Assembly: GCA_963931305.1 (NCBI GenBank)
Contig: OZ006994.1
Location: 134,882-198,881 of the forward strand
From: an uncultured Bacilli bacterium
GTDB lineage: Bacteria; Bacillota_I; Bacilli_A; RF39; UBA660
DNA: 64,000 nucleotides
Direction of reading: 5' to 3'
A program made the translations under genes and the position numbers. Below are positions 3,698 through 56,591 of the stretch, one piece after another (positions within the stretch are counted from its first letter, which is position 1; every line of letters starts with the position of its first letter). The notes beneath the pieces are model-generated. The model ran no database searches, was not told the origin of the DNA, and worked only from the letters and a program-made list of their open reading frames with translations.

Positions 3698-3757
3698 GGG
3701 CTCTTCTTTTTTTATTAGATTTATGATATGATGGAAGAGATAATAAGGGTGAGGCTT

Positions 3758-6700
3758 ATGAAGATAATACTGTATTTGAATGATAAGAAAATTGATTTTT
3801 TGTTGCCACAACAAATTTTTGGTAGTTTTGGTTTTGATGAGAACAGCCAAGAAGAAAGTAAACTTATCCATATTGAGGCGAAAGATGGAAATTGGATATT
3901 GTGTAGTACTTCTGATGTTCAAATTATTGATCATAATCAGTATGTAAAAGAGATAAAATTAGAGCCAAACCAATTTTACGTTTTAAGAAGAGATGAAAAG
4001 AATTATTTGATATATGTTCAAGAAATTACATTTCCTGGATTTCAATTATATACATATCAAAAGGATTTACAAATTACGATTGGTAATCAACAAAATTGTA
4101 GTATCCAATATTTAATTCCATATATGCAAGGAGTGTTTGCGAAAATATATTATCGTGAAAATCGTTTAATGATAGAACGCGTTGGGAAAGGGAATATTTA
4201 TATCAATCGTATTGCACTAAAAGAAAATGCTTATTATATAAAAAATGGTGATTTTATAGATATATATGGTTTACAAATGATTTTTTTAGACGGTACTTTG
4301 TTTATTCGCCGTTTAGAACAAAAGATTCTTGTAAATTTAGAACTTAGTAAATTAACTGCTTATCAATTTCCAAAGGAAGAAGAACCAGAAAATGTTGAAA
4401 TAAAAAATTTAGAATTGTATTCAAAAAACTCTTATTTTTCAAAACCACCACGTTTACGTAGAATGATAGAGACAAAAGTGATAAAGTTAAGTGCTCCTCC
4501 ACGAGATGAAAGCAAAGAGGAAATGCCAATTGCTTTAGTAGTGGGACCCATGCTGACTATGGGAATTATGTCTGGAACTATGCTTTTGAATACGTTGATG
4601 CGTATTTCAGCAAAAGAAGCAACTTGGGCTTCTTCATGGCCACAGCTAGTTACCAGTGGTGCTATGTTGATTTCTATGATTGTATGGCCTATGGTAACGC
4701 AAGTTTATAATCGTAAAATGAAAAAAAGAAAACGTATTGAAACAGTTGAGAAGTATACAAAATATTTAAATGAGAAGAAAGAAGAATTATTACAAGAGGC
4801 AAAGTTACAAACTGATATTTTATATGAGAATTTATTAACTGTTGAGCAATGTTTGAATATTATTAAACATCAAGGAATTAACTTTTGGGATAAACGAATT
4901 GATCAGAGTGACTTTTTAGTGACACGTTTAGGAATTGGAAAAGAACACTTAGATGTTAAAATTGAATATCCCGATGAGGGATTTACTGTAGATGAAGATG
5001 AACTTCGCAAACAAGCAGATCAATTAGTAGAAGAGTTTCAATATATTTCTAATGTTCCAATTGGCTATTCATTTTATCAAAATAAAACCACAGCAATTAT
5101 GGGAACGAGTTATAAAGTAATGCATTTAATGCACAATATATTGTTACAATTAATGACATTTTATAGTTATGAAGACGTAAAGATTGTATTGTTTACCAAT
5201 CAAGAAAGAAAAGAACAATGGAACTATTTAAGATATTTAAAACATTGTTTTAATAATGAAGAAAGTATTCGTTTTTTTGCTGATGATTTAGAAAGTGCAA
5301 AGAATGTTGCCGATTATTTACAATTAGAAATTCATAATCGTATGCAGCAAAAAGAAAATCATAGTTCTGTTACATTAAAGCCATATTATTTTATTGTAAT
5401 TGATGATTATGATCAAGTAAGATATCATGAATTAATTAAGTTAATTACGGAAACTGATGAAAATTTAGGGTTTAGTTTGGTAATTTTAGAAAATAGATTG
5501 AGTAAGTTACCAAGTAAATGTAATAATTTTATTTCTGTAGGGGAAAATAGTTCCGGTATTTTGAAAAATTCTTATGAAAATCAGGAACAAGTAACATTTA
5601 CGGATGAAATTAAGTATGATATCAATATGATGGATGTTGTGAAACAGTTATCAAATATACCAATTGAGTTTGAAGATGGTGTTTCTTCTATTCCAGATTC
5701 TATTTCATTTTTAGAGATGGAAAAAGTAGGAAAAGTAGAACAATTGAATATTTTAAACCGTTGGAATACAAATGATTCTACGACAAGTTTAAAAGCAGAA
5801 ATTGGTGTTGATAGTCAAGAAAACTTAATGTATTTAGATCTTCATGAAAAGGCACATGGTCCACATGGATTAATTGCTGGTATGACTGGTAGTGGTAAGT
5901 CAGAGTTTATTATTACGTATATTTTATCTATGGCAATTAATTATAGCCCTGATGATGTTGCCTTTATCTTAATTGACTATAAAGGTGGAGGATTGGCATT
6001 TGCTTTTGAAAATAAGGCTGCAAATGTGATTTTACCTCATTTAGCGGGAACAATTACAAATTTAGATAAGGCAGAATTAAATCGTACACTTGTAAGTATT
6101 GATAGTGAAATTAAAAGACGACAAGAAATTTTTAATCAGGCAAGGGAACAACTAGGAGAAAGCACAATTGATATTTATAAATATCAAAGATTTTATAAAG
6201 AAGGAAAATTACAAGAACCTGTTCCTCACTTATTTATTATTTGTGATGAATTTGCAGAATTAAAAGTTCAACAACCTGAATTTATGGATAATTTGATTAG
6301 TGTTGCTCGTATTGGTCGTAGTTTGGGAATACACCTTATTTTAGCGACGCAAAAACCTAGTGGTGTAGTAAATGATCAAATTTGGTCTAATACGAAATTT
6401 CGTGTTTGTTTAAAAGTGCAAGATGAATCAGATAGCAAAGAGGTATTAAAGGTACCAGATGCTGCTTACTTAAGACAAACTGGACGTTTTTATTTAGAAG
6501 TAGGATATAATGAATATTTTGCGTTAGGTCAATCTGCATGGTGTGGTGATAAATATTATCCATCAGAACGAATTATAAAGCATATTGATCGAAGTGTTAG
6601 TTTTATTGATGATAGTGGGAATGATATTAAAAACACACAAATTTCTAGTGGAAATAAAATAACTGCTATGGGTGATCAATTATCAGCCATTATGAATATG

Positions 6701-8329
6701 ATTATTATGGTTGCGAACCAAGTAGAGAAACATACAAGAAAATTATGGCTAGAAAATGTCCCGGATTTTATTTTAGAAACTGATTTACAAAGTAAATATC
6801 AAATGACCTTTGATAAAAAACCAGCAGCAATTATAGGAGAATATGATGCTCCTGAGAAACAGGAACAAGGAATTGTTTCATATCACTATTTAGATGATGG
6901 AAATACGATTGTTTATGGTACGGATGGAGCAGAAAGAGAGTTGTTCTTAAATACTTTATTATATTCTACAATAAAAAATTATTCATCGTCTCAAATTCAA
7001 TTTTACATCATTGACTATGGTTCTGAATCATTAAGAAGTTATTTATCTTGTCCACATGTTGGTGGTATGGTGTTTGCCTCAGAGGATGAAAAATATCACA
7101 ATTTATTAAAAATGATTCGTGAAGAATTACAAAATAGAAAACGTATTTTACGAGATTATGGTGGAGAGTATTCTAATTATTTAGAATCTGGAAAAGATAA
7201 TTTACCAGTACAAGTAATTATTATGAACAATTTTGATTCTATATACGAAAATAATCCAGATATTTATGAATTATTACCAGAATTAGTACGTGATTCTGAA
7301 CGATATGGTATCATTTTTATCTTTACTGTGAATGCATTTAATTCACTTCCAAGTAAAATCTCACAAAATTGTAGTAATATTTATGCTTTCCATGTTAAAG
7401 ATAATGATGAGTATACATCTATCTTTAATCAAAGAGTAAAGGTGATGCCACGAGATATTGTTGGTCGTGGATTATTATTAAATGATGGTATTCATGAATT
7501 TCAGGTGGCACATATTTTCAATGAAGATGAGAATGCAAGTCAAAGAATGTTAGAATTTGTGGAAGAAGAAAAAAATAAAAATCAAGTAAGTGCAAAAAGA
7601 ATTCCTACTCTCCCAGATGTTATTACACTTTCCGACATTCAAGAATATATTTCTAATATTCATCGCGTTCCAATTGGAATTGTAAAAAGTGATTTACAAG
7701 TTTGCTATGTTGATTATTTAAATAGTCTTGGTAATATTGTTACTTCTACAAAGTTAGAAAATACAACAAACTTTATTTGCAGCTTATCTCTTGTATTAGA
7801 ACAAATGAAAAGTGTTCATACTATGTTATGGGATGCTTCTTCTAATTTAGAAAAATATCAAACATGTTTTCATCAATATTATAATCAACGCTTTCATGAA
7901 ATATTAGATGATCTTATTTTATCATTAGAAAAATACTCATCTATGTCTCAAAAGCCTAAATTAGTAGTATTTATCTATGATTTTGATAAATGGATTTCAA
8001 AATTAAAAGATACGAATCGTTTACAGATATTCGTACAAAAGATCAAAGAGTATGAAAATTTATCTTTGGTAATTGCTGATTCCTCATTAAAAATTAAAAA
8101 ATATGTATTTGAACCATGGTTTGCAAGTATATTTAGTGTAAATCAAGGTGTATGGATAGGTAGAGGCATCTCTGATCAGAGTTTGTTACATTTATCAAAC
8201 GTTACACGAGATATGACTAAAAATTATAAAAATGATATGGGATATTTTGTAGATGATGGTTTAGCAACACTTTGTAAATGGATTGACTTTTTTGTAACCG
8301 AAGATGTAGGTGATGATCATGAAGAATAA
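3758..8329 (+). CDS. essC: Type VII secretion system FtsK/SpoIIIE-family ATPase EssC (YukB-like)
   Basis: ~1523 aa: N-terminal FHA-like region, 2 TM helices and three FtsK-like ATPase domains. D1 carries a canonical Walker A (GLIAGMTGSGKSE) and Walker B (LFIICDEFAEL). There is long collinear identity to S. aureus EssC around IPDSISFLEM…LHEKAHGPHGL…LIDYKGGG. D2 and D3 have degenerate P-loops. The RBS aagggtgagg sits 4 nt upstream of the ATG at 3758. Confidence 0.9.
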   Translation: MKIILYLNDKKIDFLLPQQIFGSFGFDENSQEESKLIHIEAKDGNWILCSTSDVQIIDHNQYVKEIKLEPNQFYVLRRDEKNYLIYVQEITFPGFQLYTYQKDLQITIGNQQNCSIQYLIPYMQGVFAKIYYRENRLMIERVGKGNIYINRIALKENAYYIKNGDFIDIYGLQMIFLDGTLFIRRLEQKILVNLELSKLTAYQFPKEEEPENVEIKNLELYSKNSYFSKPPRLRRMIETKVIKLSAPPRDESKEEMPIALVVGPMLTMGIMSGTMLLNTLMRISAKEATWASSWPQLVTSGAMLISMIVWPMVTQVYNRKMKKRKRIETVEKYTKYLNEKKEELLQEAKLQTDILYENLLTVEQCLNIIKHQGINFWDKRIDQSDFLVTRLGIGKEHLDVKIEYPDEGFTVDEDELRKQADQLVEEFQYISNVPIGYSFYQNKTTAIMGTSYKVMHLMHNILLQLMTFYSYEDVKIVLFTNQERKEQWNYLRYLKHCFNNEESIRFFADDLESAKNVADYLQLEIHNRMQQKENHSSVTLKPYYFIVIDDYDQVRYHELIKLITETDENLGFSLVILENRLSKLPSKCNNFISVGENSSGILKNSYENQEQVTFTDEIKYDINMMDVVKQLSNIPIEFEDGVSSIPDSISFLEMEKVGKVEQLNILNRWNTNDSTTSLKAEIGVDSQENLMYLDLHEKAHGPHGLIAGMTGSGKSEFIITYILSMAINYSPDDVAFILIDYKGGGLAFAFENKAANVILPHLAGTITNLDKAELNRTLVSIDSEIKRRQEIFNQAREQLGESTIDIYKYQRFYKEGKLQEPVPHLFIICDEFAELKVQQPEFMDNLISVARIGRSLGIHLILATQKPSGVVNDQIWSNTKFRVCLKVQDESDSKEVLKVPDAAYLRQTGRFYLEVGYNEYFALGQSAWCGDKYYPSERIIKHIDRSVSFIDDSGNDIKNTQISSGNKITAMGDQLSAIMNMIIMVANQVEKHTRKLWLENVPDFILETDLQSKYQMTFDKKPAAIIGEYDAPEKQEQGIVSYHYLDDGNTIVYGTDGAERELFLNTLLYSTIKNYSSSQIQFYIIDYGSESLRSYLSCPHVGGMVFASEDEKYHNLLKMIREELQNRKRILRDYGGEYSNYLESGKDNLPVQVIIMNNFDSIYENNPDIYELLPELVRDSERYGIIFIFTVNAFNSLPSKISQNCSNIYAFHVKDNDEYTSIFNQRVKVMPRDIVGRGLLLNDGIHEFQVAHIFNEDENASQRMLEFVEEEKNKNQVSAKRIPTLPDVITLSDIQEYISNIHRVPIGIVKSDLQVCYVDYLNSLGNIVTSTKLENTTNFICSLSLVLEQMKSVHTMLWDASSNLEKYQTCFHQYYNQRFHEILDDLILSLEKYSSMSQKPKLVVFIYDFDKWISKLKDTNRLQIFVQKIKEYENLSLVIADSSLKIKKYVFEPWFASIFSVNQGVWIGRGISDQSLLHLSNVTRDMTKNYKNDMGYFVDDGLATLCKWIDFFVTEDVGDDHEE

Positions 8330-8588
8330 AGTATTAGTAAGATTAATTGTACCAGAATTAGATACTAGTTTTGATGTCTTTGTACCAATTAATGAAGTGA
8401 TATGGAGATTGAAAGCTCTATTTATAAAATCAATTTCGGATTTAAGTAGTTTTTCTCTTCCCACAGATGTGAATTATTTATTGTTAAATAAAGATACTGG
8501 TAAAATTTATCAGAATAATGAATTAGTATTAAATACGGATATCCGTAATGGTACAGAATTGTTTTTTGTTGCACGTAGTCAATTGTAA
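8319..8588 (+). CDS. esaB: T7SS ubiquitin-like protein EsaB/YukD
   Basis: ~89 aa with a beta-grasp-like pattern resembling EsaB/YukD (VLVRLIVPELDTSFDVFVPINE…). The start overlaps the essC stop, so the genes are translationally coupled. AGGTGA lies 5 nt upstream of the ATG at 8319. Confidence 0.65.
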   Translation: MKNKVLVRLIVPELDTSFDVFVPINEVIWRLKALFIKSISDLSSFSLPTDVNYLLLNKDTGKIYQNNELVLNTDIRNGTELFFVARSQL

Positions 8589-8605
8589 ACTATTGTAAAC
8601 AATAT

Positions 8606-8634
8606 TTGACTTTTTAAAAAACTTATATTAATAT
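8606..8634 (+). promoter_or_regulatory. Sigma-A-type promoter upstream of the EsxA-like gene
   Basis: TTGACT, a 17-nt spacer, then TAATAT. It is preceded by two tandem copies of attgtaaac (8582-8600), which could be an operator. Confidence 0.4.
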
Positions 8635-8677
8635 GAAATTAGATAGGATACTATCTATTATTAAAGGAGGCATAGAT

Positions 8678-9322
8678 ATGGCATTAACTGGATTTAATCC
8701 TGATGTAGTAAATTCATCAATTAATTCTGTAAAAGCAGCATATGAAAATTTAATTCAAGCGTTAGGAAATGATATGCAGACACGTTTTGTGAATGGAATG
8801 GCAGATAAATGGGCTTGTAATCAAGCACAAACATTCTTTAACAATTCTTTCAAACCTGCAATTGATAATTTAATTACAAGTTCAAATGCAATTTTTGAAA
8901 GTGTAGTAGCATCAATGAATAGTGCTGGACAAGCTTGGGCAGCACAAACTGATTCTTCATATTCTCCACAATCATTTTCAGCAATTTCAAAAACAATCGA
9001 TACAAGTGTGATTCGTGAAAATATTGGTGGAGTCAGAGGAATTGATTTATCATCAGCAACAACAGTTGCAAATCAATTAACTTCAATTGCTGACTCTGCA
9101 AAATCTGCACTAACAAGTGCACAACAAGCTGTACAAAATTGTGGATTTATTGGTGGAAATCAAGCAAGTAATTTAATTAATTCTTTAGGAGTTATTAAAA
9201 CTAAGATTGATAATGCTACTCAAGAAATTTCAAATCAATCAAGAACAGCCATCAACAACACTGTTGAAAGCTATTCTGATACAGAAGGAAGAGTTTCACA
9301 AGCGTTTTCTTCTGAAGGATAA
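8678..9322 (+). CDS. WXG100 (EsxA)-like T7SS substrate with a ~115-aa Ser/Thr/Asn-rich C-terminal extension
   Basis: The N-terminal ~100 aa align in pattern with EsxA/YukE (…RFVNGMADKWACNQAQTFF…, where WAC replaces WXG). The protein is helical and A/S/T/Q-rich. AAGGAGG lies 7 nt upstream of the ATG at 8678. The gene sits directly downstream of essC-esaB. Confidence 0.5.
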   Translation: MALTGFNPDVVNSSINSVKAAYENLIQALGNDMQTRFVNGMADKWACNQAQTFFNNSFKPAIDNLITSSNAIFESVVASMNSAGQAWAAQTDSSYSPQSFSAISKTIDTSVIRENIGGVRGIDLSSATTVANQLTSIADSAKSALTSAQQAVQNCGFIGGNQASNLINSLGVIKTKIDNATQEISNQSRTAINNTVESYSDTEGRVSQAFSSEG

Positions 9323-9350
9323 AATGATATAAAGAATACCAGGTGATAAT

Positions 9351-9905
9351 ATGGAAATTCATATTGATAAATTAAAGACAACGGTATTACAATTAAATCA
9401 TTGTATAGAAGAATATGAAGAAATTTATATGAATTTTTATCATGTAATTTCTTCTTCTTCTTTTTTTTGGAATGATAATCGTTCTAAAAAATTTTACGAG
9501 GCAATGTATACCGAGAAAAATCAAGTAAAAACAGTAATTGATGAACTATATAATTTAAAAAATATTTATGATTATATGATTGCAGAATATGAGAAAATTG
9601 GTACTAGAATACAAATTCAGTTAAGTGAAAAACAAAATGTAATTCAGTTGTTTGAAAAATATTTGGAAAAAATTCATCGCTGTATACAAATATTGTATTC
9701 AATTTCTTTAGATGCATATCCAGAAGTTGCTCCATTATTAGTAGAAGAAAAAAATAATTTTATCAGATTAGAACAACAAGTTCAAACATTAAAAGATAAG
9801 TTATCACAATTATTTGATAAAATAGAAGAATTGGAAAATCATATAAATAAAGAAATAAATAAATTACAGATTCAAAAAATATCAGAGATAGAAGGAGAAT
9901 ATTAA
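9351..9905 (+). CDS. WXG100-like / coiled-coil small protein (putative T7SS effector helper)
   Basis: 184 aa. The N-terminal helical hairpin has an FFWNDNRSKKFYEAMY motif in the WXG position, and the C-terminal half is a long coiled coil. It is tightly linked to the two following small ORFs. Confidence 0.4.
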   Translation: MEIHIDKLKTTVLQLNHCIEEYEEIYMNFYHVISSSSFFWNDNRSKKFYEAMYTEKNQVKTVIDELYNLKNIYDYMIAEYEKIGTRIQIQLSEKQNVIQLFEKYLEKIHRCIQILYSISLDAYPEVAPLLVEEKNNFIRLEQQVQTLKDKLSQLFDKIEELENHINKEINKLQIQKISEIEGEY

Positions 9906-9906
9906 T

Positions 9907-10200
9907 ATGGAACAATTTATGAACGAAGAGAAGTTTGCACAAGCAATTGAAAAATTAAAAATGTATTATAAAGAGGAGTCGCTATTATTTGATTCAATGA
10001 CAAAGTTGTTGACTAGCTTCTCACAAGATTATATTTCTGATAACGTAGATGATTTTCAAACATTAGATAATGAATTTTTAACAAAATTTCGTGCGATAAA
10101 AGAAAAACAAGCATATGGGATAAAATCTATGGAACAGTCGTTATTTGGTTACCAAGAAACAAAAATAAAAGTAGAAAATAAGTTAAAGGATATGATGTGA
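9907..10200 (+). CDS. Small helical protein (putative T7SS effector chaperone/adaptor, LapA/DUF3958-like by context)
   Basis: 97 aa and helical. The intergenic distance to the upstream gene is 1 nt. Confidence 0.3.
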   Translation: MEQFMNEEKFAQAIEKLKMYYKEESLLFDSMTKLLTSFSQDYISDNVDDFQTLDNEFLTKFRAIKEKQAYGIKSMEQSLFGYQETKIKVENKLKDMM

Positions 10201-10201
10201 T

Positions 10202-10450
10202 ATGAATACAGAAGAAATGATAAGAAAACAACAATATCAGTTGTTATTGAAACAAATGAAAATGCTACAAAATGAGATAGATGAATTAGAAGATGATTAT
10301 CAAATGGCAAAAAGCCAAGTAGAAAAAAGTATAATGGTTGATCATCATATTGGCTTTGAAAAAGAGTTTGAAACAATTCAAAATAGTCAAACGGCTTTGA
10401 AACAATATTTGATTTATGATATAATTTCTATGATATCAAAAAAAATATAA
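10202..10450 (+). CDS. Small coiled-coil protein (WXG100-like size; putative T7SS helper)
   Basis: 82 aa, Q/E/L-rich coiled coil. It is 1 nt from the upstream ORF and 12 nt from the CHAP-domain gene. Confidence 0.3.
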   Translation: MNTEEMIRKQQYQLLLKQMKMLQNEIDELEDDYQMAKSQVEKSIMVDHHIGFEKEFETIQNSQTALKQYLIYDIISMISKKI

Positions 10451-10462
10451 AGGGGGAGGTAT

Positions 10463-11842
10463 ATGGCATCTAAAATTAAAACTTCTTTAGCAAAAAATAC
10501 AAATATTGAGTTTGATAGTAAACCTCAAAGTCCTAATATTCTTAGTATAGAACAAAATAAAACCAATGTTGATAGTCAAAATAAAAGCAGTGGGAGTTCT
10601 CAAACTTCAAATCTTAATTCAGGACTTAACAAATCAACATCTTCTGTAGAAGAAATATCATATGAAGATTTAAATCTCCCTTTTTTTAAATCGATTGAAA
10701 AAAAAGCGGTTGATTGCTTATCTGCATTAAATCTAAATAATATAAATGAAGATATGATTGAATCAGTAGATGGAAATAAAATTCGTTTAAAAAATGGTAC
10801 TATCATTACTTTATATTCAAATTTGTTAAATGCAAAAAATCACACTTTTGAATTCAATACAATTCCTTATGAATTTCAAGCAGGTATTATTCAAGATATC
10901 AATGGCAATCAATTCATTTTTGATGAAAACGGTGTGCAAGAAGCTAATATAAAAGATTCAAAAGCATATAAAATTGGGAATCATATTGATTGGAATGAAG
11001 ATATTCACAGTATTTTATTGCAGTCTTTTAAAAATGTTGAAAATAAGCAAGAATTTGCATTTATTAAAAAGATCGAAAATAATTATTCATTGTATGAAAA
11101 AGCGCTTAATCAGATATTAGAAAAATATAAAGGTAATGAAGAGCAATTTGTAAAAGATTTTGGATTTTCAATGTATACTTTGGATTCAGATGGAAGTGTT
11201 CATTTTAATTATGAAACACTTGCAGTTTATCTAGGTAAAACATTATGGAATGATTATTATGGATATAAAGATATAAACGAAGTGAATAAGGCTCAATTAC
11301 AATTACGACCAGAATCTGGTAATCAATTATTTCGTATTATGAATGATGGGTCGATTGGTATTAATAATACAAATTATCCTATTGTTTCAATTTCTGAATG
11401 GGATAGAGAAATTGACAATTTTTCTGATTTAGATGTAAAGAAGTATGGCGTAGGAAATAATTTATTAATTGGACAGTGTACTTGGTTTGCTTCTAGAAGA
11501 TATCATCAAACGCATGGAGTAGTACCAGTTACTAATGGAAATGCAACTGATTGGATTTATAATGCGAATCAAAATAGCGTTGGTAGTGTTCCTAAGAAAC
11601 ATTCTGTTATGGTATTGGGAGGAACAGAATATGGACATGTAGCTTTTGTTGAAGATGTAAAATATGATGCTGCTGGGAATGTCACATCTATTACGATTTC
11701 CGAAGCTAATGTAAATGGGGATCCTAATAACGTAGAAAGTACAGTGGCGCGTGCAGAGCAATTAACACGTGTAAATACTTATAGTAGTGTTCAAGAATAT
11801 GCAAATTTAGTAAAAATGCCTGTCAAAGGATTTATTTATTAG
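10463..11842 (+). CDS. CHAP-domain (NlpC/P60-superfamily) peptidoglycan hydrolase/amidase with no signal peptide; candidate T7SS-exported effector
   Basis: The C-terminal ~120 aa form a CHAP domain with catalytic Cys and His (…GQCTWFASRRYHQ… GHVAFVEDV…). The N-terminal ~330 aa are hydrophilic and low-complexity, with no Sec signal or TM. GGGGGAGG lies upstream of the ATG. Confidence 0.65.
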   Translation: MASKIKTSLAKNTNIEFDSKPQSPNILSIEQNKTNVDSQNKSSGSSQTSNLNSGLNKSTSSVEEISYEDLNLPFFKSIEKKAVDCLSALNLNNINEDMIESVDGNKIRLKNGTIITLYSNLLNAKNHTFEFNTIPYEFQAGIIQDINGNQFIFDENGVQEANIKDSKAYKIGNHIDWNEDIHSILLQSFKNVENKQEFAFIKKIENNYSLYEKALNQILEKYKGNEEQFVKDFGFSMYTLDSDGSVHFNYETLAVYLGKTLWNDYYGYKDINEVNKAQLQLRPESGNQLFRIMNDGSIGINNTNYPIVSISEWDREIDNFSDLDVKKYGVGNNLLIGQCTWFASRRYHQTHGVVPVTNGNATDWIYNANQNSVGSVPKKHSVMVLGGTEYGHVAFVEDVKYDAAGNVTSITISEANVNGDPNNVESTVARAEQLTRVNTYSSVQEYANLVKMPVKGFIY

Positions 11843-11912
11843 AAGGAAGTATATATTACTTTCTTTTTGTTTTATATGATTTAAAAACGCATATATTTTA
11901 TTAGGTGATACT

Positions 11913-12578
11913 ATGCTGAAGTATAAATTATATGTGTTTTTTTCGTTTCTTATATTACTTTGTCTTGTTTCTTTTGGCCAAGCAAAGACTGTAAGTAAAC
12001 CTTTATATCAAAAAACTATTTTTTTAGATGCTGGGCATGGTGGTCCTGATAGTGGTGCATTATATCGAAATATATATGAAAAAGATATTAATTTGAGTAT
12101 TGTCAAAAAATTAGAAAAAAAATTAACTGATAAAGGAGCGAAAGTTTTTTTAACACGCGATGGTGATTATGATTTATCTGTACCATATACTGTGAATCGC
12201 AAGCGTAGTGATCTTTCAAGAAGAAGTAATATGATAAACCGTTCTCAGTGTGATTTATACATTTCTATTCACTTAAATGCCGATACTTCTACTACCTATC
12301 ATGGGGCACAAGTATTTTACGATAGTAAAGTAAAACAAAATAAAAAAATTGCTGAAATCATTCAATCTGATTTAAAACAATATTTGTATACCACAAGAGA
12401 AGCAAAACAAAAGAACGATATGTATTTATTTCATCGCTTAGAAAAACCTGGTGTTTTAGTAGAAATAGGATATATTACGAATCCAAATGATCGTTATTTG
12501 CTATTGCAAAATGAATATCAAGAAAAAGTCGCTAAGATTTTAACAAATAGTATTATCCGTTATTTTTATAAAAAATAA
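11913..12578 (+). CDS. cwlD: Germination-specific N-acetylmuramoyl-L-alanine amidase CwlD (Amidase_3)
   Basis: 221 aa: signal/anchor segment plus Amidase_3. Near-collinear motif matches to B. subtilis CwlD (IFLDAGHGGPDSGA, LYISIHLNA, HGAQVFY, KPGVLVEIGYITNP, YQEKVAKILTNSIIRYF). Confidence 0.8.
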   Translation: MLKYKLYVFFSFLILLCLVSFGQAKTVSKPLYQKTIFLDAGHGGPDSGALYRNIYEKDINLSIVKKLEKKLTDKGAKVFLTRDGDYDLSVPYTVNRKRSDLSRRSNMINRSQCDLYISIHLNADTSTTYHGAQVFYDSKVKQNKKIAEIIQSDLKQYLYTTREAKQKNDMYLFHRLEKPGVLVEIGYITNPNDRYLLLQNEYQEKVAKILTNSIIRYFYKK

Positions 12579-12633
12579 CTATATTTTTTTATTTGATAAT
12601 AAAACATAAAAAAAACATATTTCACCACAATTT

Positions 12634-12646
12634 TTGTGATATAATT
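12634..12646 (+). promoter_or_regulatory. Extended -10 promoter element upstream of the Abi_2 gene
   Basis: TGtgaTATAAT motif ~15 nt upstream of the RBS taggtgag. Confidence 0.35.
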
Positions 12647-12661
12647 AACCTAGGTGAGAGT

Positions 12662-13594
12662 ATGAGGAGCAAGATATTTAAAACCCTGGATGAACAACTT
12701 GCTATCTTAGAGGAACGTGGTTTAGTAATTCAGGACTATGATAAAGCAAAGGCAATTTTATTCCGTGAAAATTATTTTTTCATTAATGGATATCGTCATT
12801 TATTTGCAAAAAGTCCTAAAAATGATCAATTTATTACTGGAACGACTTTTGATGAATTATATGCAACTTTTACTTTCGACCGTAGTCTTAGAAATTTAAT
12901 GTTTAAATATTTGCTCATTATAGAAAATAATATAAAATCTATTATTAGTTATCAATTATCTAGAAAATATGGATATAAAGAAAAAGAATACTTAAACCCA
13001 AATAACTTTACACAAGATTCTATGAAAACAAGACAAGTACATGATATTTTGTCAAAAATGAAGAGACAGATTCGTGTTAATGGAAAGCAGCATACTGCGA
13101 CCTCTCACTATCTATTAAATTACGGATATATTCCAATGTGGATCTTGGTAAAAGTATTGTCTTTTGGCATTGTTTCTGAATTATATACAATTTTAAAATC
13201 AGAAGATCAATTAGTAATTGCTGATTTTTATCATATTGATACAGAAACATTAGGTATCTTTTTAGCGCTTCTTTCTAATTTTAGAAACTTATGTGCGCAT
13301 GAAGATATTTTATATGATCATAGGACACAACGCTCTATACCAGATAATAAATACCATTATGCACTTCATGTTGATAAAACAGATGATGAATATAATTATG
13401 GGAAAAATGATTTATTTGCTTTAATTATTATTATGAAATATATGTTATCTTCTGAAGAGTTTTCTGATATGATGAATGAACTCAGTTATGAGATTGATCG
13501 GTTAGATGGTATTGTGAATGTTGTCCCATTAAATACAATATTAAATAAAATTGGTTTTCCAGATAATTGGCGTGATATTGAACTTTTAGATTAG
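12662..13594 (+). CDS. Abi_2 family abortive-infection protein (AbiD/AbiF/AbiD1-like)
   Basis: ~310 aa. The N-terminus is the typical Abi_2 start (…FKTLDEQLAILEERGLVI…) and conserved blocks follow (NYGYIPMWILVKVLSFG, FRNLCAHED). The start is taken at the ATG at 12662 after a GGTGAG RBS. The ORF extends upstream to 12593. Confidence 0.7.
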   Translation: MRSKIFKTLDEQLAILEERGLVIQDYDKAKAILFRENYFFINGYRHLFAKSPKNDQFITGTTFDELYATFTFDRSLRNLMFKYLLIIENNIKSIISYQLSRKYGYKEKEYLNPNNFTQDSMKTRQVHDILSKMKRQIRVNGKQHTATSHYLLNYGYIPMWILVKVLSFGIVSELYTILKSEDQLVIADFYHIDTETLGIFLALLSNFRNLCAHEDILYDHRTQRSIPDNKYHYALHVDKTDDEYNYGKNDLFALIIIMKYMLSSEEFSDMMNELSYEIDRLDGIVNVVPLNTILNKIGFPDNWRDIELLD

Positions 13595-14806: not shown

Positions 14807-15100
14807 ATGAATAATCCAAGAATTGTCATTGATGCAGGACATGGTGGTACGGATGGAGGAGCAACAGGAAATGGAATTATAGAAAAAAACTTAACTTTAG
14901 ATATTTCTAAATATATGTATAATCGTTTTCGTGAGCTTGGAATTCCTGTTACAATGACTAGAACTACTGATGAAACTTTATCTCCTACAGAGCGTGTAAA
15001 TCGTATTATGGATGCATATGGTGATGAGAAGGGAGTCATTATTATTTCAAATCACATCAATGCGGGGGGAGCGGAGTTTAGTTACCATTACATAATTTAA
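14807..15100 (+). CDS. 5' segment of a split Amidase_3-LysM cell-wall amidase gene (N-terminal catalytic half, interrupted after …HINAGG)
   Basis: Amidase_3 N-terminal motifs (IVIDAGHGGTDGGA… ISNHINAGG). After codon GGA (15068-15070) the frame reads 10 foreign codons and then stops. The rest of the domain resumes at 20188. Confidence 0.7.
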   Translation: MNNPRIVIDAGHGGTDGGATGNGIIEKNLTLDISKYMYNRFRELGIPVTMTRTTDETLSPTERVNRIMDAYGDEKGVIIISNHINAGGAEFSYHYII

Positions 15101-15408
15101 TTGGGCAGTTATAAGAGGCTCAGTAAGATATAAGACTTATATTAGAACTTATCTTATAGAAATATAAGATGAATACAGTTTAAACTATTACATATTTCAA
15201 AGAACTAAAATGAAATATGAAAAGGGGTAAAAAAACATATGTTATAGTTTAAACATATCAAAGGAGACTTTCTCCTTTAGAGGGATTTTGTTTACTATTT
15301 TTTGTAATTAGGCTTATAAAATGTAAGTCTTTTTTGTTGTTTAATTTAAATAAATATAGGAGAAATGTTAAAAATTAATACTAAAGAATTAAGAAAAAAG
15401 GCTGATAA

Positions 15409-15708
15409 ATGAACTTCGACAAGTATTTAAAAATTCCAATGTTTTTAGCTGATGATAAGAATATAGGACATAGTGGTAAATTGTTATATGCTAGACTATT
15501 ATTACTTACACATAAAGAAGGTTATTGCTATGCTGATAATAGCTACTTAGGTAATTTAATAGGGGTAGGATCTAGAAGAATAACTAAACTATTAAAAGAA
15601 TTATCAGATAATAATTATATAACTATGGAATATAAACATAAATTTCAAAGAAAAATTTATATTAATAAAAATAAATATACATCCATTACTTTAGAAGAAA
15701 TGTTCTAA
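15409..15708 (+). CDS. Small putative winged-helix DNA-binding protein (phage/plasmid RepA-N / HTH_36-like); possible excision/regulatory factor of the element
   Basis: 99 aa with the pattern …GKLLYARLLLLTHKEGYCYADNSYLGNLIGVGSRRITKLLKELSDNNYI…, typical of phage helix-turn-helix proteins. It is followed by a hairpin at 15712-15736. Confidence 0.35.
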   Translation: MNFDKYLKIPMFLADDKNIGHSGKLLYARLLLLTHKEGYCYADNSYLGNLIGVGSRRITKLLKELSDNNYITMEYKHKFQRKIYINKNKYTSITLEEMF

Positions 15709-16074
15709 TTAATTGGATGTATATTTTACATCCAATGGATCTTTATATCTACAATAATATAATAAATAGAATATAAAAAATATTAATAGGATATATTTAT
15801 TATAAAATTATTTTATATATTTAAAAAGAGAAAGGAAGTTGATATATGTATGATAAAAAAATAATTTTAAACATAAATTTAAATAGGTGGTTTAAATATG
15901 AGAGGAGCCTATTTGAATAAAATTTCATTTAAAGATCTTATTTTGAAGTACTTAATCGAAGAGATAATGAAACAAGAAGGAGTAAAAAATAATTAATGAT
16001 TTGCAATTATTCATTAATGATGTTATCATTCATTTGTCTAAATACCCAATTAAGTAAGAAGATTGGAGGAATGA

Positions 16075-17730
16075 ATGAATAATACTTACTTAAATGGATT
16101 AGATTTCAATGTTGGAATCTATATAAGATTATCTCAAGAAGATAAGGACAAAAAATATGAATCTGATAGTGAAAGTGTAATAAATCAAAAAGAATTATTA
16201 AGAAATTATGTTAAAAATAATAATTTTAATTTAGTTAAAGAATATGTTGATGATGGATTTTCTGGAACCGATTTTGAAAGACCAGGATTTAAAAGTTTAT
16301 TAGAAGATATTAATAATAAAAAAATTAATTGTGTAATAGTAAAAGATTTATCAAGACTCGGTCGTGATCATGTTATGACTGGTTATTATATTGAAACGTT
16401 TTTTCCAGAGAACAATATAAGATTTATTTCTATATTAGAATCCTTTGATAGTTTTAAAAATCAAGCTAGTAATGATTCATCAACATTTATAATTGCATGT
16501 AATGATTATTATAGTAAACAAAATTCTGTTAAAATTAGAAATGTATTAAACGAAAAAAGAAAGAATGGAAAGTTTATAGGGAGTTTACCTAGTTTTGGAT
16601 ATATGAGAGATCCAAAAGATAAAGGACACTTAATCCCTAATCCAGAAACTGCTCCAATTGTTAAAAAGATATTCAAGTGGAGAGCAGATGGTATTGGACC
16701 TACTGAAATAGCAACTAGATTAAATAATAATAATGTTCCAACTCCAAGTGGCTATAAGAAAACAAACTTTTCTTCTAGATTAATTGATAGGGATACTTGG
16801 AATATTTCCACAGTAAAGAAAATTTTAACAAATAGAATTTATACTGGAGATATGGTTCAACACACTCAAGCTAAAGCGAATTATAAGTCTAAGAAAAAAA
16901 TAAATCTTGATGCAAGTTTATGGATGATAGTAGAAAATACACATCAACCTTTAGTTGATAAAACAACATTTGAATATGTTCAATCGCTTAGAAAAAGATA
17001 TACTAGAAATGTACCTATAAAAACAGGTAGGGAAAAAAGAATTTTGGAAGGTAAGTTATTTTGTAAGGAATGTGGAAATAGATTATCGGTTTATTATAGA
17101 AAAAAACAAGATTATTGGTCTATTAATTGTAATAGATATTCTAGAGATCCAAAAAGAGGGAGATGCAGTTCACATTTCTTTCCATATAACTATCTAGAAG
17201 ACCAGATATTAGAAAAAATTGATGAATCAGTATCTAGTTTTATTAAAGAATTAAATATAGATGAATTAAATAAAAAAGTAATAAAAACAATTTATAAGCA
17301 AACACAAAGCGTTGATAAAAAAATTAGTGATTTAAATAAAGATAAAGAACAAATATTAAATAGGTTATCAAATTTGTATAATGATAGATGTGAAGGTATT
17401 ATAACGGGAGTATTATATCAAGAATTATCTTTAGAATCAGAAAAAAAGTTAAAGAAGATAAATGAAAGTATTAAAAATGAAAAAATAAAAAAATTAAATA
17501 TTAAAAATAAAAGTGCAACATTACCTAATTATACTAAAAAAATAAAAGAATTATTAGATTTAAAGAAGCCTCGGAAATCATTAATAGATACACTGATAGA
17601 CACAATAGCAATTGATGAAAAAAGAAATATATGTATAAAATTTAAATATGAAGTGATTCCAAATATTAATTTTAAATATGAAAATAGAAACTTGGCTAGA
17701 AATCCGTATGGTAGAAAAGGAAAGAAATAA
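16075..17730 (+). CDS. Large serine recombinase (resolvase/invertase catalytic domain + recombinase + zinc-ribbon/coiled-coil C-terminal region)
   Basis: 551 aa. N-terminal serine-recombinase catalytic motif (VGIYIRLSQED… DDGFSGTDFERPGF… VIVKDLSRLGRD), a central recombinase domain and a Cys-rich zinc ribbon (CKECGN…C…C), as in SpoIVCA, SprA, CcrB and phiC31-type integrases. Confidence 0.85.
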   Translation: MNNTYLNGLDFNVGIYIRLSQEDKDKKYESDSESVINQKELLRNYVKNNNFNLVKEYVDDGFSGTDFERPGFKSLLEDINNKKINCVIVKDLSRLGRDHVMTGYYIETFFPENNIRFISILESFDSFKNQASNDSSTFIIACNDYYSKQNSVKIRNVLNEKRKNGKFIGSLPSFGYMRDPKDKGHLIPNPETAPIVKKIFKWRADGIGPTEIATRLNNNNVPTPSGYKKTNFSSRLIDRDTWNISTVKKILTNRIYTGDMVQHTQAKANYKSKKKINLDASLWMIVENTHQPLVDKTTFEYVQSLRKRYTRNVPIKTGREKRILEGKLFCKECGNRLSVYYRKKQDYWSINCNRYSRDPKRGRCSSHFFPYNYLEDQILEKIDESVSSFIKELNIDELNKKVIKTIYKQTQSVDKKISDLNKDKEQILNRLSNLYNDRCEGIITGVLYQELSLESEKKLKKINESIKNEKIKKLNIKNKSATLPNYTKKIKELLDLKKPRKSLIDTLIDTIAIDEKRNICIKFKYEVIPNINFKYENRNLARNPYGRKGKK

Positions 17731-17812
17731 CTTTAATATGTTCTATTTTAAACATAACTAATAAAATTATAGTATAATAATATTGTAGTTTGATATGAAG
17801 GGATGTAACTAT

Positions 17813-18541
17813 ATGATTAAAGTGGAATTAACAAAAAATTATACTGGTGTTAATATATCTGGTGACTATGAAGATTTAGATTTTCTATATGATTCAATTC
17901 ATTATTTTATAAAAGAAGAACCTAAAAGTTTAATTGAAGAATCTATGCAAGATCATATTTTTGGATTTTTATATGAGGTTAGACATTGTTATCAAGGTGA
18001 TAGAGATTTTAAATTTGTTGATAATGAACTTAGAGATGAAGTTAGAGAATATCAAAAGATACAAAAAAATGAGATCTCAAATAACAATTTATATTATAGT
18101 TTTGACTATGTTTTAACTGATTTATTTACGGATATGGTATTAATTAAATATTTTATTATGAATATTCCAAAAACCGAAAAAAATGATTATAATCCATATT
18201 TGAACAATGTCAAATTGTTTTATTCGCAAATTTTAAATTTGATGCAAGAGATTTTAACACCTACAAAGATGAGAAAATTAGAAAAAGGATTTATTGATAC
18301 AATAATTTCGGACAAAATATTTTTTCCACAATGGTTTGATGTTATAACGTGCAATTACTTAAAACAAACTAAAGAAAAAAGAGTAAAAGAGTTATCTAAA
18401 ACTTTAGATGCTATTTATAATTATAGTGATTATATGGATTACTCTAAAATGAAAATAGAAGTAGAAAAATATTGCAATGAAAATAATTGTTTAATAACAA
18501 ATGTAACAATATGTGAATATCCTGGTGAAATAGAATGGTAA
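17813..18541 (+). CDS. Hypothetical protein (element cargo)
   Basis: ~242 aa with no recognisable motif. The start is taken at the ATG at 17813, 9 nt downstream of an AAGGGA RBS. An in-frame ATG at 17795 is also possible. Confidence 0.3.
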   Translation: MIKVELTKNYTGVNISGDYEDLDFLYDSIHYFIKEEPKSLIEESMQDHIFGFLYEVRHCYQGDRDFKFVDNELRDEVREYQKIQKNEISNNNLYYSFDYVLTDLFTDMVLIKYFIMNIPKTEKNDYNPYLNNVKLFYSQILNLMQEILTPTKMRKLEKGFIDTIISDKIFFPQWFDVITCNYLKQTKEKRVKELSKTLDAIYNYSDYMDYSKMKIEVEKYCNENNCLITNVTICEYPGEIEW

Positions 18542-18615
18542 TATGCAAATATTTTTAAAATATCGACAATAAAAACATTTTATAGTATGTATAATAAATA
18601 TAAGGAGATGATTCG

Positions 18616-20133
18616 ATGACTGAAGCTGAAGTAATTGAGGCAATAAATCATGTAAGAAAATATAATACAGAAACAAATACGATTGAAGTTAAGACAGCAT
18701 CAATGGATTTCCCTAAAAAATGTTATGATACTTTTTCAAGTTTTTCTAATAAATATGGTGGAATTATAATTTTTGGTATAAATGAAGAAAATGGTTTTAA
18801 AACTGAAGGTGTATATGATTTGAATGACTTACAAAAGAAAATTTCTTCTTTATGTAGTGATTCTATGGAACCGGCAATTAGACCTGATATTTTACCTATG
18901 GAATTTGAAGGTAAAAATATATTGGCTGTTAAAATAGATGAAATTCTTCAAAATAAAAAACCATGCTATTATATACCGAAGGGGTTAAATAAAGGTTCAT
19001 ATACAAGAGTTGGAGATAGAGATGAAGTAATGACTGATTATGAAATTTATGCACTCCAAAGTTATAATGATCATATTTTTGAAGATACTAGACCTACAAA
19101 GAGAGCAAGTATTGATGACTTGAATCAAGAAGAACTAACAAAATATATAAATAAGTTAAAAGAAGAAAAACCAAATTTTGCTAAAAATGATTTTGATAAA
19201 TGTTTAAAAATATGTGGCATTACGGATACTAATGATGAGAAAGTATATCCAACTTTAGCTGGTACGATGTTGTTTGGAGAATTTCCACAGACTTATTACC
19301 CTCAATTATTTGTTGCTTGTGTTGTAATTCCAGGTATCGAAATTGGAGATACAGGTGTTTTAGGTGAAAGATTTATTGATAATAAAAGAGTTGAAGGAAC
19401 TATAGAAGAAATGATTACAGGTACTATGAATTTTTTGACACGTAATATGAAAAATAGTGTAATAATTAATTCTCAAGGAAAAAGAATTAATAGAACAGAG
19501 TATCCGTTAGAAGCATTAAGAGAAGCTGTTGCTAATGCTTTGATTCATAGAGATTATAGTACACAAACTGAAAATGCATATGTATCAGTTTATATGTATA
19601 ATGATAGAATTGAAATTATAAATCCAGGTGCATTATATGGTACTAATAAATTAGAAAAATTAGGGACAGCAACAACTATGGAATCGAGAAATCCAACTAT
19701 TGTTAGAATTCTTGAAGAAAAAGGTGATGTAATTGAAAATCGACATTCTGGAATCCCAACAATGATAAGAGAAATGGAAAAATATGGATTACCTGAACCT
19801 GAATTTTATGAAGAAAGAGATAGTTTTAAAGTTATTTTTAGAAACAAAACTGTTGTTATTAATGAAGAAAGTGATACACAAAGTGGACAACAAAGTGGAC
19901 AACAAAGTGGACAACAAAAAAGCAGTATTACTGAATATCAAAATATGGTATTAGAATACTGTAAAGAAGCCAAAACAGCCAAGGAAATAAAAAGTTATTT
20001 ACAAATTAAATCAAGACAATATATTTCTACAAATATTATCAAGCCTTTAATTAATAGTGGAAAATTAGATTATACAAATAAAAATAGTATTAATGCTAGA
20101 AATCAAAAATATTTAACTATAAAAAAGGATTAA
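18616..20133 (+). CDS. AlbA_2 (Schlafen-like divergent AAA) + HATPase_c_4 + C-terminal winged-HTH protein (family annotated 'RecG-like' / putative transcriptional regulator)
   Basis: 505 aa. N-terminal AlbA_2-like region; central HATPase_c_4 signature (LREAVANALIHRDYS); an SGQQ x3 linker; a C-terminal wHTH. AAGGAG lies 8 nt upstream of the ATG. Confidence 0.55.
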   Translation: MTEAEVIEAINHVRKYNTETNTIEVKTASMDFPKKCYDTFSSFSNKYGGIIIFGINEENGFKTEGVYDLNDLQKKISSLCSDSMEPAIRPDILPMEFEGKNILAVKIDEILQNKKPCYYIPKGLNKGSYTRVGDRDEVMTDYEIYALQSYNDHIFEDTRPTKRASIDDLNQEELTKYINKLKEEKPNFAKNDFDKCLKICGITDTNDEKVYPTLAGTMLFGEFPQTYYPQLFVACVVIPGIEIGDTGVLGERFIDNKRVEGTIEEMITGTMNFLTRNMKNSVIINSQGKRINRTEYPLEALREAVANALIHRDYSTQTENAYVSVYMYNDRIEIINPGALYGTNKLEKLGTATTMESRNPTIVRILEEKGDVIENRHSGIPTMIREMEKYGLPEPEFYEERDSFKVIFRNKTVVINEESDTQSGQQSGQQSGQQKSSITEYQNMVLEYCKEAKTAKEIKSYLQIKSRQYISTNIIKPLINSGKLDYTNKNSINARNQKYLTIKKD

Positions 20134-20187
20134 ATATAAAAATTTTTTAAAATAAGTTGTAGTGGAGAGTAGAATATTCGTGGTGGA

Positions 20188-43293: not shown

Positions 43294-43418
43294 AGTAGTG
43301 CTTTCTTTGAGAAAGCAAGAGAAATTGAAGAAATTCAATGAATGATCTTTGAAAACTGAGCAAAACGTGAATTCCAAATCGCTAGGAAAAAAACAATAAA
43401 AAAATGAAAATAAATTTT

Positions 43419-44976
<1,558 letters not shown>

Positions 44977-45174
44977 ATGGAGAAAGAAAAAACCGTAAGA
45001 TAGCGAAAAGGAAAGAGAAGTTTTGCTTAGTTTTGAGAGATTGTTCTCTCAAGAAATTGTTCTTTGAAAACTTGATAATGTGGTAGTGATATACGAAAAG
45101 AAAGCCGACTAGAAATAGTCAACGTCGCGCGTATATCACATTAAAACTCAATCAATTAGGATAAATAACGAAAT

Positions 45175-48102
<2,928 letters not shown>

Positions 48103-48165
48103 CAAGTTATTTATGAAGATTGAAACACATTATCATGTTTTCAGAGAATAATTTCTGTAAAGTAA

Positions 48166-48270
48166 ATTGGTAACAATAGCAATGAGGGTACACCTGTTCC
48201 CATCCCGAACACAGAAGTTAAGCTCATTCACGCCGACGATAGTTTATCGCGAAAATAGGTAGTTGCCAAT
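48166..48270 (+). rRNA. rrf: 5S ribosomal RNA (copy 1)
   Basis: …CCTGTTCCCATCCCGAACACAGAAGTTAAGC…; the terminal helix pairs attggtaac with gttgccaat; followed by a T8 run. Confidence 0.8.
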
Positions 48271-48360
48271 TTTTTTTGTATACTCCGTTACCATTAGGTA
48301 GCGTTTTATTTTACTTTTTTTTATTATTTGATATAATATATACCCACAAGGGGTGTTTTT

Positions 48361-51907: not shown

Positions 51908-53465
<1,558 letters not shown>

Positions 53466-53663: not shown

Positions 53664-56591
<2,928 letters not shown>

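Follow-up and report, generated by a model that had tools for sequence, protein, structure and literature searches.

How could a peptidoglycan hydrolase that has neither a signal peptide nor a membrane helix reach a cell wall, and whose wall would it attack? The question is raised by a locus of an uncultured Bacilli bacterium (contig OZ006994.1), where the last gene of an operon headed by essC, the gene of a type VII secretion ATPase, encodes a 459-amino-acid (aa) protein with a C-terminal CHAP domain (10463-11842; hereafter the CHAP protein). We analysed it within a window of 64 kb, which here means the whole stretch of DNA under analysis and serves as the reference; the region concerned has a G+C content of ~28%. 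An initial annotation had regarded the protein as a candidate toxin delivered by a type VII secretion system (T7SS), preceded by the genes of three small helper proteins and lacking an obvious immunity gene. The three small open reading frames (ORFs) and the CHAP gene lie where it had placed them, and every element it described is present. We consider the protein to be, with fair confidence, an EssC-exported CHAP hydrolase of effector ancestry; our confidence in the whole chain of events, antagonistic target included, stays a little below an even balance. What we describe is an effector or hydrolase linked to a T7SS, unusual in that its N-terminus is not of the LXG kind; it is a variation on a known theme and not a new kind of system.

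Seven genes lie on the same strand at 3728-11842, with overlaps or gaps of 1-45 nt between them: those of EssC, a 92-aa protein, four helical proteins of 214, 184, 97 and 82 aa (hereafter p214, p184, p97 and p82), and the CHAP protein. EssC (3728-8329, + strand as all features of the operon) is an FtsK/SpoIIIE-type ATPase of 1533 aa with an N-terminal extension and stands first in the conserved cassette; it scores 953.8 bits with the NCBIfam model TIGR03928 (T7_EssCb_Firm), above the equivalog cutoff of 778.4, and is therefore an EssC of the Bacillota type that characterises the T7SSb. The next gene (8310-8588) overlaps the end of essC and encodes a protein at the YukD/EsaB position that is possibly ubiquitin-like; its sole match is a weak one to the ubiquitin-like family PF23326 (E 2.5e-4), under the cutoff. 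A gene of 86-95 aa occupies this position in every related EssC locus, and the window copy is 54% identical to its orthologue in L084, one of the sister loci introduced below. The spacers between the p184, p97, p82 and CHAP genes are 1, 1 and 12 nt, with the three small genes translationally coupled upstream of the CHAP gene, which has a strong ribosome-binding site of its own (AAAGGGGGAGG). A terminator-like hairpin with a T-run closes the operon (11841-11875; an 11-bp stem of -9.7 kcal/mol by RNAfold, then TTGTTTT); a simple consensus terminator scan did not call it, the stem being A/T-rich with too few G-C pairs. In a promoter scan of the region all signals were at or under the expectation from shuffled sequence.

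The nearest public genomes are metagenome bins labelled as uncultured Mycoplasmatota, Tenericutes or Acholeplasmataceae. We compared the window with metagenome loci that carry the CHAP cassette (L001-L008) and with sister loci that have a related EssC and p214 module (L084-L095). The gene order, from EssC through the ~90-aa protein and the proteins of 214, 184, 97 and 82 aa to the CHAP protein, is identical in two genomic contexts: L002-L006 and L008 share the flanks of the window, and L001 and L007 have other flanks: Spo0A lies upstream in L001, and the CHAP gene is not followed by cwlD. Chance does not account for the arrangement, since other metagenomes conserve the block of seven genes and do so in two contexts. 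In the window, the operon is followed by the genes of an Amidase_3 (CwlD-like) protein, an Abi_2 protein and an HtrA-like protease, in this order, the first scoring 199.6 and thus just under the CwlD equivalog cutoff of 221.55. We considered cwlD as a partner or immunity gene and rejected it, as the adjacency is lost in L001 and L007: since the CHAP cassette recurs without cwlD when the flanks change, the adjacency is incidental. The hairpin and T-run after the CHAP stop codon agree with this, and the initial annotation had likewise seen no immunity protein in CwlD. The Abi_2 (abortive-infection-like) protein, encoded between the cwlD-like gene and htrA (12593-13594), is 96-99% identical across related metagenome-assembled genomes (MAGs), with a ratio of nonsynonymous to synonymous substitution rates (dN/dS) of 0.01, a conservation that is unusually high for a defence-type gene.

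The host group has retained wall and sporulation genes (the cwlD-like gene in the window, Spo0A in L001, SpoVG and YabP in L084), so the host is a small-genome, walled and probably spore-forming member of the Bacilli. These neighbours also favour an explanation in which the CHAP protein is an autolysin independent of the T7SS, released by lysis of the cell or mother cell, by a holin-like pathway or in vesicles, for example an enzyme of sporulation or germination that came to lie at the operon end by chance. That the protein has no recognisable T7 targeting domain, and that the locus has no EssA, EssB or EsaA, would fit such an enzyme too. We think this improbable, for the linkage to EssC and the module survives the change of flanks and the linkage to cwlD does not; the N-terminal region of the protein, as seen below, speaks against it as well.

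The catalytic part of the CHAP protein is clear. PF05257 matches residues 332-416 (E 6.2e-15, 55.9 bits, cutoff 26), and the CHAP amidase/endopeptidase domain with its C-terminal extension (aa 331-459) and the stop codon occupies 11453-11842. Cys339 (in GQCTWF) and His392 (in GHVAFVE) are invariant in nine orthologues and align to the solved CHAP domains 2lrj and 2k3a, and the fold is the papain-like one of CHAP hydrolases; with this Cys/His pair intact, the domain is predicted to be catalytically competent. It is the most conserved part of the protein and is constant across the family rather than polymorphic, the family itself being small (~10 close homologues only). Re-analysis of hydropathy found neither a signal peptide nor a membrane helix: the maximal Kyte-Doolittle value is 0.72 for a 19-residue window and -0.31 for an N-terminal 12-residue window, and the neighbouring CwlD-like and HtrA proteins reach 3.2 at their N-termini on the same measure. 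Both the C-terminal CHAP domain and the missing signal peptide of the initial annotation are thus confirmed, and the protein shows no sign of using the Sec pathway.

The N-terminal part has a different character. It begins with a nonapeptide, MAxKIKTSL (10463-10489), in which M1 and K4-L9 are invariant in nine orthologues and after which ~55 residues are hypervariable. A Ser/Asn-rich disordered linker (aa 10-71) and a small beta-rich domain (aa 78-162), both fast-evolving, occupy 10490-10948; in the AlphaFold2 (AF2) model, residues 1-71 have a predicted local distance difference test score (pLDDT) of <50 and strands appear at 99-162, with a strand motif, LKNGT.I, that is repeated in related effectors. 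A helical domain of higher confidence follows (aa 179-276, 10997-11290; pLDDT 81-91). As the initial annotation had noted, the region is not of the LXG kind: the AF2 model shows no long LXG hairpin in it, and neither the LXG nor the WXG100 models of Pfam match it or any other protein of the locus, even at E<=1. The nonapeptide has counterparts at the start of related effectors (MSKINTNL, MGEINTNV, MGEIKTDV, MSKIKVSI and MINKTNSTV). Because the invariant nonapeptide precedes a hypervariable disordered linker, it may well serve as a recognition signal and is our candidate for the export motif; the same arrangement argues against an autolysin that would owe nothing to the T7SS. The N-termini of this effector class (MSKINTNL, MGEINTNV, MAINSNIG and MASKIKTSL; the window protein, at 10463-10510, and P0145, P0148, P0155, P0167, P0189, P0193 and P0228) resemble those of flagellins (M..INTN), a likeness that may be coincidence or a matter of composition.

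Where does this N-terminal region come from? We built a profile from residues 1-322; among 1.84 billion representative proteins it had 162 significant hits, most of them on the helical domain. The best of them are encoded in sister EssC/module loci (P0145 in L091, P0148 in L092, P0193 in L093 and a 647-aa protein in L094), which again is hard to reconcile with an autolysin placed at the operon end by chance. The hits share an unannotated domain with QYGGNQ, then GCGY(T/I)A..N.IF..Y.GRE.EF..FG..MY, then GHAM.V.G...G..VSSWG, and these motifs read as the Cys/His signature of a papain-like peptidase. The domain corresponds to no Pfam family, although one member has a weak Peptidase_C39_2 hit, and a PDB profile search with the cysteine-peptidase family came back empty. 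Its genes lie at 5583-9170 in L084, 5708-7012 and 7409-9679 in L091, 2735-4399 in L092, 4188-5285 in L093 and 10619-12562 in L094 (proteins P0145-P0291). The domain also ends the large DUF4176-associated effectors L084_1195 and L091_756, and elsewhere it stands behind LXG-like helical heads, Sec signal peptides or short N-termini (MSKINTNL, MGEINTNV, MGEIKTDV); judged from these architectures, it behaves as a polymorphic toxin module. The first ~280 residues of the CHAP protein are thus homologous to toxin-type effectors of the sister loci, and the helical domain reads as the decayed N-lobe of the papain-like peptidase domain: in the alignment, Ser (in some orthologues Pro) stands where the homologues have the catalytic Cys (GCGYTA), neither QYGGNQ nor GHAM is left, and CHAP has taken the place of the C-lobe with its His.

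This ancestry bears on immunity. Every active peptidase effector that we examined is adjoined by the gene of a cytoplasmic protein of 216-235 aa, namely L084_235 (9179-9886), L091_225 (5028-5705), L091_235 (9683-10390), L092_228 (1778-2464), L093_216 (5299-5949) and L094_222 (12579-13247). The family has no Pfam match, and its constant position makes it a strong candidate for the cognate immunity protein or chaperone of the peptidase toxin. A tblastn search found no member of it in the 64-kb window. The initial annotation had left open whether immunity is absent, unconventional or encoded elsewhere; that none is conserved downstream is correct, and a more specific cause that it had missed now suggests itself, namely that no immunity-like gene is seen because the ancestral toxin domain decayed and its partner of 216-235 aa was lost.

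We then have to ask what the small helical proteins are for. The four genes upstream of the CHAP gene form a module headed by p214 (8678-9322), whose ORF opens at 8633; the likely start is 8678, which has a good ribosome-binding site and agrees with the length of the orthologues. Its model (pLDDT 89) is a fused double hairpin, two helical hairpins packed as a four-helix bundle with W45 at the first turn, that resembles EspB, and its C-terminus carries a YxxxE motif (YSDTE). p214 has a weak match to ESAT6_2 (E 0.024) and none to WXG100. It is nearly frozen (99.6% identical to the closest MAG, dN/dS 0.007) and counts at least 165 homologues that are 50% or more identical to it. The four-gene module that it heads occurs in at least 10 locus types, one of which (L094) has two p214 paralogues, of 236 and 214 aa. 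We infer that p214 is probably the core secreted substrate and that the three helical proteins are its partners. Faint Flagellin_C hits were also seen among the p214 homologues.

The first of the three, p184 (9351-9905), always comes next after p214 and has a conserved N-terminal half with a W-x-D/G motif and a variable C-terminal half. The initial annotation had pointed to FFWNDN at the position of the WXG motif, and the Trp concerned, W40, proved invariant in nine homologues down to 23% identity, mostly as W-x-D and in one as W-x-G; four of the nine members also have sub-threshold matches to the YwqH-like family PF16888 (best E 4.9e-5). An identical p184 was found on a 1.26-Mb contig, and at the level of sequence words p184 is as restricted as the CHAP protein. 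The second, p97 (9907-10200), keeps its position in all related loci at 23-28% identity to distant members and has neither a Pfam nor a PDB match; its FxxxD (FQTLD) was considered as a Lap1 export motif and dropped, as it is not conserved. The third, p82 (10202-10450), has homologues of 72-103 aa in all related loci. Neither p97 nor p82 shows a conserved Trp in the homologue alignments, none of the three has a WXG100 (PF06013) hit at E<=1, and PDB profile searches with the alignments of p184, p97, p82 and p214 returned coiled-coil or four-helix noise only, with no Esx or Lap structure.

Wherever we examined its context, homologues of these three proteins (~186, 97 and 72-103 aa) come after p214. 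L084, for example, reads EssC, 87 aa, DUF4176, 1195 aa, 235 aa, the module and YabP; L086 reads EssC, 86 aa, DUF4176, a 1019-aa ADP-ribosyltransferase/HD effector, 104 aa, a 236-aa kinase-like protein, the module and DnaJ; L091 and L095 are arranged similarly, and there is no CHAP gene in these loci. Because the three small proteins are present with p214 in many loci without a CHAP gene, they are constant members of the module: their place is beside p214, not SPECIFICALLY with the CHAP protein. The kinase-like protein of L086 (9191-9901, just upstream of p214) is soluble and has a protein-kinase domain (Pkinase, E 1.6e-20); it is unrelated to the 216-235-aa family and recalls the kinase or pseudokinase components of other T7SS subtypes.

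These results decide how far the model of the initial annotation can be taken. In its strict form, the CHAP protein would be an analogue of LXG toxins, with the three small proteins as dedicated Lap-like adaptors that form a helical pre-secretion shaft with it. The direct translational coupling upstream of the CHAP gene is as this model expects, as are the invariant Trp and the sub-threshold YwqH-like hits of p184 and the divergence of p97 and p82 together with the CHAP N-terminus, and small WXG100-like genes typically flank T7 substrates (PMC11217815, PMC13492133). Known LXG toxins (TelA-D, and EsaD with EsxB/C/D; PMC13492133, PMC10765036) are likewise signal-less and encoded downstream of essC beside small helical proteins, and they have in common with the effector family described here that toxin domains are shuffled among N-terminal heads and that partner genes co-diverge with the effector. 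The window protein, however, has no LXG domain and no long helical N-terminus: being disordered and beta-rich, its N-terminus offers no hairpin for packing into a shaft. The helpers are kept with p214 where there is no CHAP gene and in some cases no adjacent effector, and are constant in the module rather than effector-specific; no LXG or WXG100 hit and no match to a solved Esx or Lap structure was obtained, p184 with its YwqH-like hits being the only one to come near. The C-terminal wall hydrolase is constant across the family, not polymorphic, and the locus has neither an immunity gene nor a DUF4176 gene. The idea of dedicated LapA-type adaptors is therefore not supported, and we give the strict model little credence.

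Part of the helper idea can nevertheless be kept. In the window and in L001 the CHAP protein directly follows p82; the same place after the p82 homologue is taken in L088 by a 347-aa Ser/Asn-rich protein, in L092 by the 554-aa peptidase effector P0148 and in L093 by a 460-aa RHS-like protein that starts with MINKTNSTV, and in L094 a 647-aa effector and the 222-aa gene are inserted just before it. The 3' end of the module is thus a variable effector slot, occupied in the window by the CHAP protein, and p82, which borders it, is the habitual neighbour of an effector class. The module head of 214 aa, the logic of the slot and the decayed toxin domain had all escaped the initial annotation.

The evolutionary rates follow this division of the locus. 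We determined protein identities against the closest bin, L005, and dN/dS against L005 and L002. Identities to L005 are 95% for EssC, 96% for the YukD-position protein, 99.6% for p214, 86% for p184, 82% for p97, 72% for p82 and 63% for the CHAP protein, and among the flanking proteins 95% for the CwlD-like protein, 99% for Abi2 and 97% for HtrA. p82 is therefore the fastest-diverging helper. The dN/dS values are 0.01-0.06 for the flanking genes, 0.13-0.30 for the three helpers (0.18 for p184 and 0.14 for p97) and 0.36 for the CHAP protein overall; within the latter, a sliding window gives 0.44-0.90 over the first ~200 codons and 0.06-0.15 over the CHAP domain. A value of 1.43 for EssC against L001 is an alignment artefact and was ignored. 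The synonymous divergence (dS) of the p97, p82 and CHAP genes, 0.72-1.13 (0.75 for p97), is two- to four-fold higher than the 0.22-0.28 of p214, Abi2 and HtrA. Because it is raised across all three, these values suggest that 9907-11842 is a recombination block that travels together and is swapped between strains.

The source of the CHAP domain introduces the most serious competitor. Outside the family, the best CHAP matches are ~40% identical, a C-terminal extension (...TRVKTYSS..EY...GFIY) included, and fall into two groups. To the first belong membrane proteins of ~600 aa that have a single pass and come from bins of related Bacilli; in L017 they directly follow a coupling protein of type IV, PrgI and a VirB4-like ATPase, and because of these type IV secretion system (T4SS) neighbours we regard the group as conjugative wall hydrolases. 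To the second belong PcsB-like proteins in which a signal peptide and a coiled coil are combined with CHAP, from Breznakia and other Erysipelotrichaceae. None of these nearest relatives has EssC nearby. Conjugative hydrolases of the PrgK/TraG/CwlT type and PcsB thus offer the closest CHAP sequences, and in them too a non-catalytic N-terminal region ties the hydrolase to a machine; they differ in having a membrane helix or a Sec signal, other N-terminal domains and T4SS or division contexts. Streptococcal and staphylococcal CHAP hits from a genome scan were rejected as counterparts, for only the catalytic domain is common to them (~36% identity for the streptococcal ones) and no EssC lies within 10 kb. 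Some T7SSb loci of streptococci and enterococci do contain CHAP genes, for which a connection with the system is not established (PMC13492133, PMC10765036); such loci, for example that of Streptococcus agalactiae CJB111, resemble the window in placing a CHAP protein inside a type VII locus (PMC13492133, PMC10765036), and they differ from it in their full T7SSb machinery.

The competitor is that the CHAP protein, arriving via EssC, opens the producer's own peptidoglycan for the T7 apparatus or the p214 substrates, as EssH may do in Staphylococcus aureus, an alternative that the initial annotation had already named and that is possible. EssH is a dedicated CHAP enzyme with a non-catalytic N-terminal domain and can be required for T7 secretion, and EssH-type genes are patchy in their distribution (PMC13059805, PMC10765036). 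By architecture the two proteins are alike: both have a C-terminal CHAP domain with Cys and His and a non-catalytic N-terminal domain without recognisable features, and both stand at a T7 locus without an immunity gene. In keeping with self-wall opening, the CHAP domain of the window protein is under strong purifying selection (dN/dS 0.06-0.15), its nearest relatives serve another envelope-spanning machine (the conjugative T4SS in L017) or are PcsB-like, and the locus of this clade has no other toxin, so the system may mainly export p214. However, EssH is a protein of 297 aa with a 24-residue Sec signal peptide, its gene and esxA are divergent, and it is no T7 substrate (PMC13059805, PMC10765036), so the mechanism would have to differ; reviews that set >50% identity as the criterion report no EssH homologue beyond the staphylococci (PMC13492133). 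The window protein has no signal peptide, is 459 aa long and is encoded by the last gene of the essC operon, and its N-terminal region derives from toxin-type effectors, which speaks against a housekeeping role. A CHAP gene is missing from most of the related EssC/module loci, also where large toxins are encoded, and a domain that docks onto a machine conserved at 95-99% should not be the fastest-evolving segment of the locus. We regard self-wall opening as a rather doubtful explanation of the whole, though the strongest of the competitors.

For an EssC-exported hydrolase of effector ancestry, the following course of events can be proposed. A CHAP domain would have been grafted onto the export region of a decayed effector, giving a chimeric hydrolase in the effector slot of the module. 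The CHAP protein would be made in the cytoplasm, and its N-terminal region would be the part that is recognised; the helical proteins encoded next to it would probably assist, p82 and p97 being the likeliest candidates because they diverge together with the CHAP protein. EssC would then export it without Sec, and outside the membrane the CHAP domain would cleave stem peptides or cross-bridges of peptidoglycan. As to mechanism and ALTERNATIVES, we lean towards an antagonistic, lysin-like role, in which variable surfaces would be tracked by the fast-evolving N-terminal domain and peptidoglycan attacked by the conserved catalytic one. We weight this role somewhat above EssH-like opening of the own wall, because of the effector ancestry and the variable slot, because the N-terminus evolves rapidly and the catalytic end is conserved, and because most sister loci do not have the gene. 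Delivery by the T7SS, as the initial annotation had it, is accordingly plausible as far as the cargo goes (it has no Sec signal, is encoded by the last gene of the EssC operon in two contexts and has N-terminal homologues in sister EssC loci), and the export step itself we put forward by inference.

Several observations weigh against this proposal. EssA, EssB (YukC) and EsaA were found neither at the window locus nor at the related loci nor among 20 other large ORFs of the window, and that this EssC forms a working channel is thus an assumption. The link between the CHAP protein and EssC is one of genomic linkage alone. In L084, L086, L091 and L095 the module has no adjacent downstream effector, and the helpers may be core substrates rather than chaperones. 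The closest CHAP relatives, conjugative hydrolases and PcsB-like proteins, are enzymes that act on the own wall, which fits an EssH-like role at least equally well. A wall-degrading antibacterial toxin is normally accompanied by an immunity gene, and no such gene is conserved downstream of the CHAP gene in either context, which favours opening of the own wall as well. To our knowledge, a helical LXG/WXG-type domain is the only kind of T7SSb signal so far characterised, and the N-terminus modelled here is disordered and beta-rich before its helical domain, with no long LXG hairpin. The model of the whole CHAP protein is only of moderate quality (pLDDT 61, from nine sequences), with a linker between the helical and CHAP domains.

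How does the gene set compare with other type VII systems? Subtypes c-j have been surveyed by Garrett, Higginson and Palmer in 2024, and candidate substrates there are usually flanked by small WXG100-related genes (PMC11217815). Like the window locus, they combine an EssC-type ATPase that has an N-terminal extension with a small ubiquitin-like protein and helical substrates, and simple sets such as T7SSg exist among them (PMC11217815); p214 in turn is, in its predicted model, a single-chain fused double hairpin as is EspB of ESX-1. In contrast, none of these subtypes has EssC, a ~90-aa protein, p214 and three more helical proteins without a second membrane component at the locus, and the EssC of the window scores as T7SSb-type. 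One could go further and see here an undescribed minimal type VII subtype, made of EssC, the ~90-aa protein, an EspB-like double hairpin and three helical proteins without EssA, EssB or EsaA, that would export non-helical effectors by a short linear N-terminal signal (M-x-x-I-K/N-T-x-L, which recalls the start of flagellins) in place of an LXG-type helical domain, the CHAP protein being the first wall hydrolase to take that route. We consider this extension unlikely.

Two further features of the window lie apart from the operon. An insertion of 5.1 kb (15070-20181) interrupts a gene with Amidase_3 and five LysM domains, whose two parts remain at 14807-15069 and 20182-21297; the gene is uninterrupted (458 aa) in the closest MAG, L005, and the junction is precise (L005 14517/14518). 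The insertion carries genes for a large serine recombinase (16075-17730) and for HTH_36, DUF6904 and Schlafen/AlbA_2-HATPase_c_4 proteins, and in a probable spore-former it may represent an intervening element of the skin type, or else simply a mobile or defence island that has integrated. Two complete ribosomal RNA (rRNA) operons (16S-23S-5S) lie 3.6 kb apart at 43417-48271 and 51906-56760, and between them, on the minus strand at 50205-51467, is a 420-aa HTH_38 ORF that is possibly a transposase; L088 has an HTH_38 ORF of 408 aa.

Two questions are acknowledged to be open, namely how substrates cross the thick Gram-positive wall and what purpose CHAP genes serve at T7SS loci (PMC13492133). 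If export of the CHAP protein depends on EssC, a T7SS can carry a wall-active enzyme, the hydrolase itself being the cargo, and a protein can be targeted to it by an N-terminus that is not of the LXG kind, is largely non-helical and contains an invariant motif of nine residues. The compact EssC gene set of these reduced-genome gut Bacilli matches no published subtype. As by-products, the analysis yielded an unannotated family of putative cysteine-peptidase toxins and a candidate family of immunity proteins. Taken with them, the locus appears to record a step in the evolution of effectors, in which the decay of a toxin domain and the loss of its candidate immunity gene went together with the grafting of a new catalytic domain.

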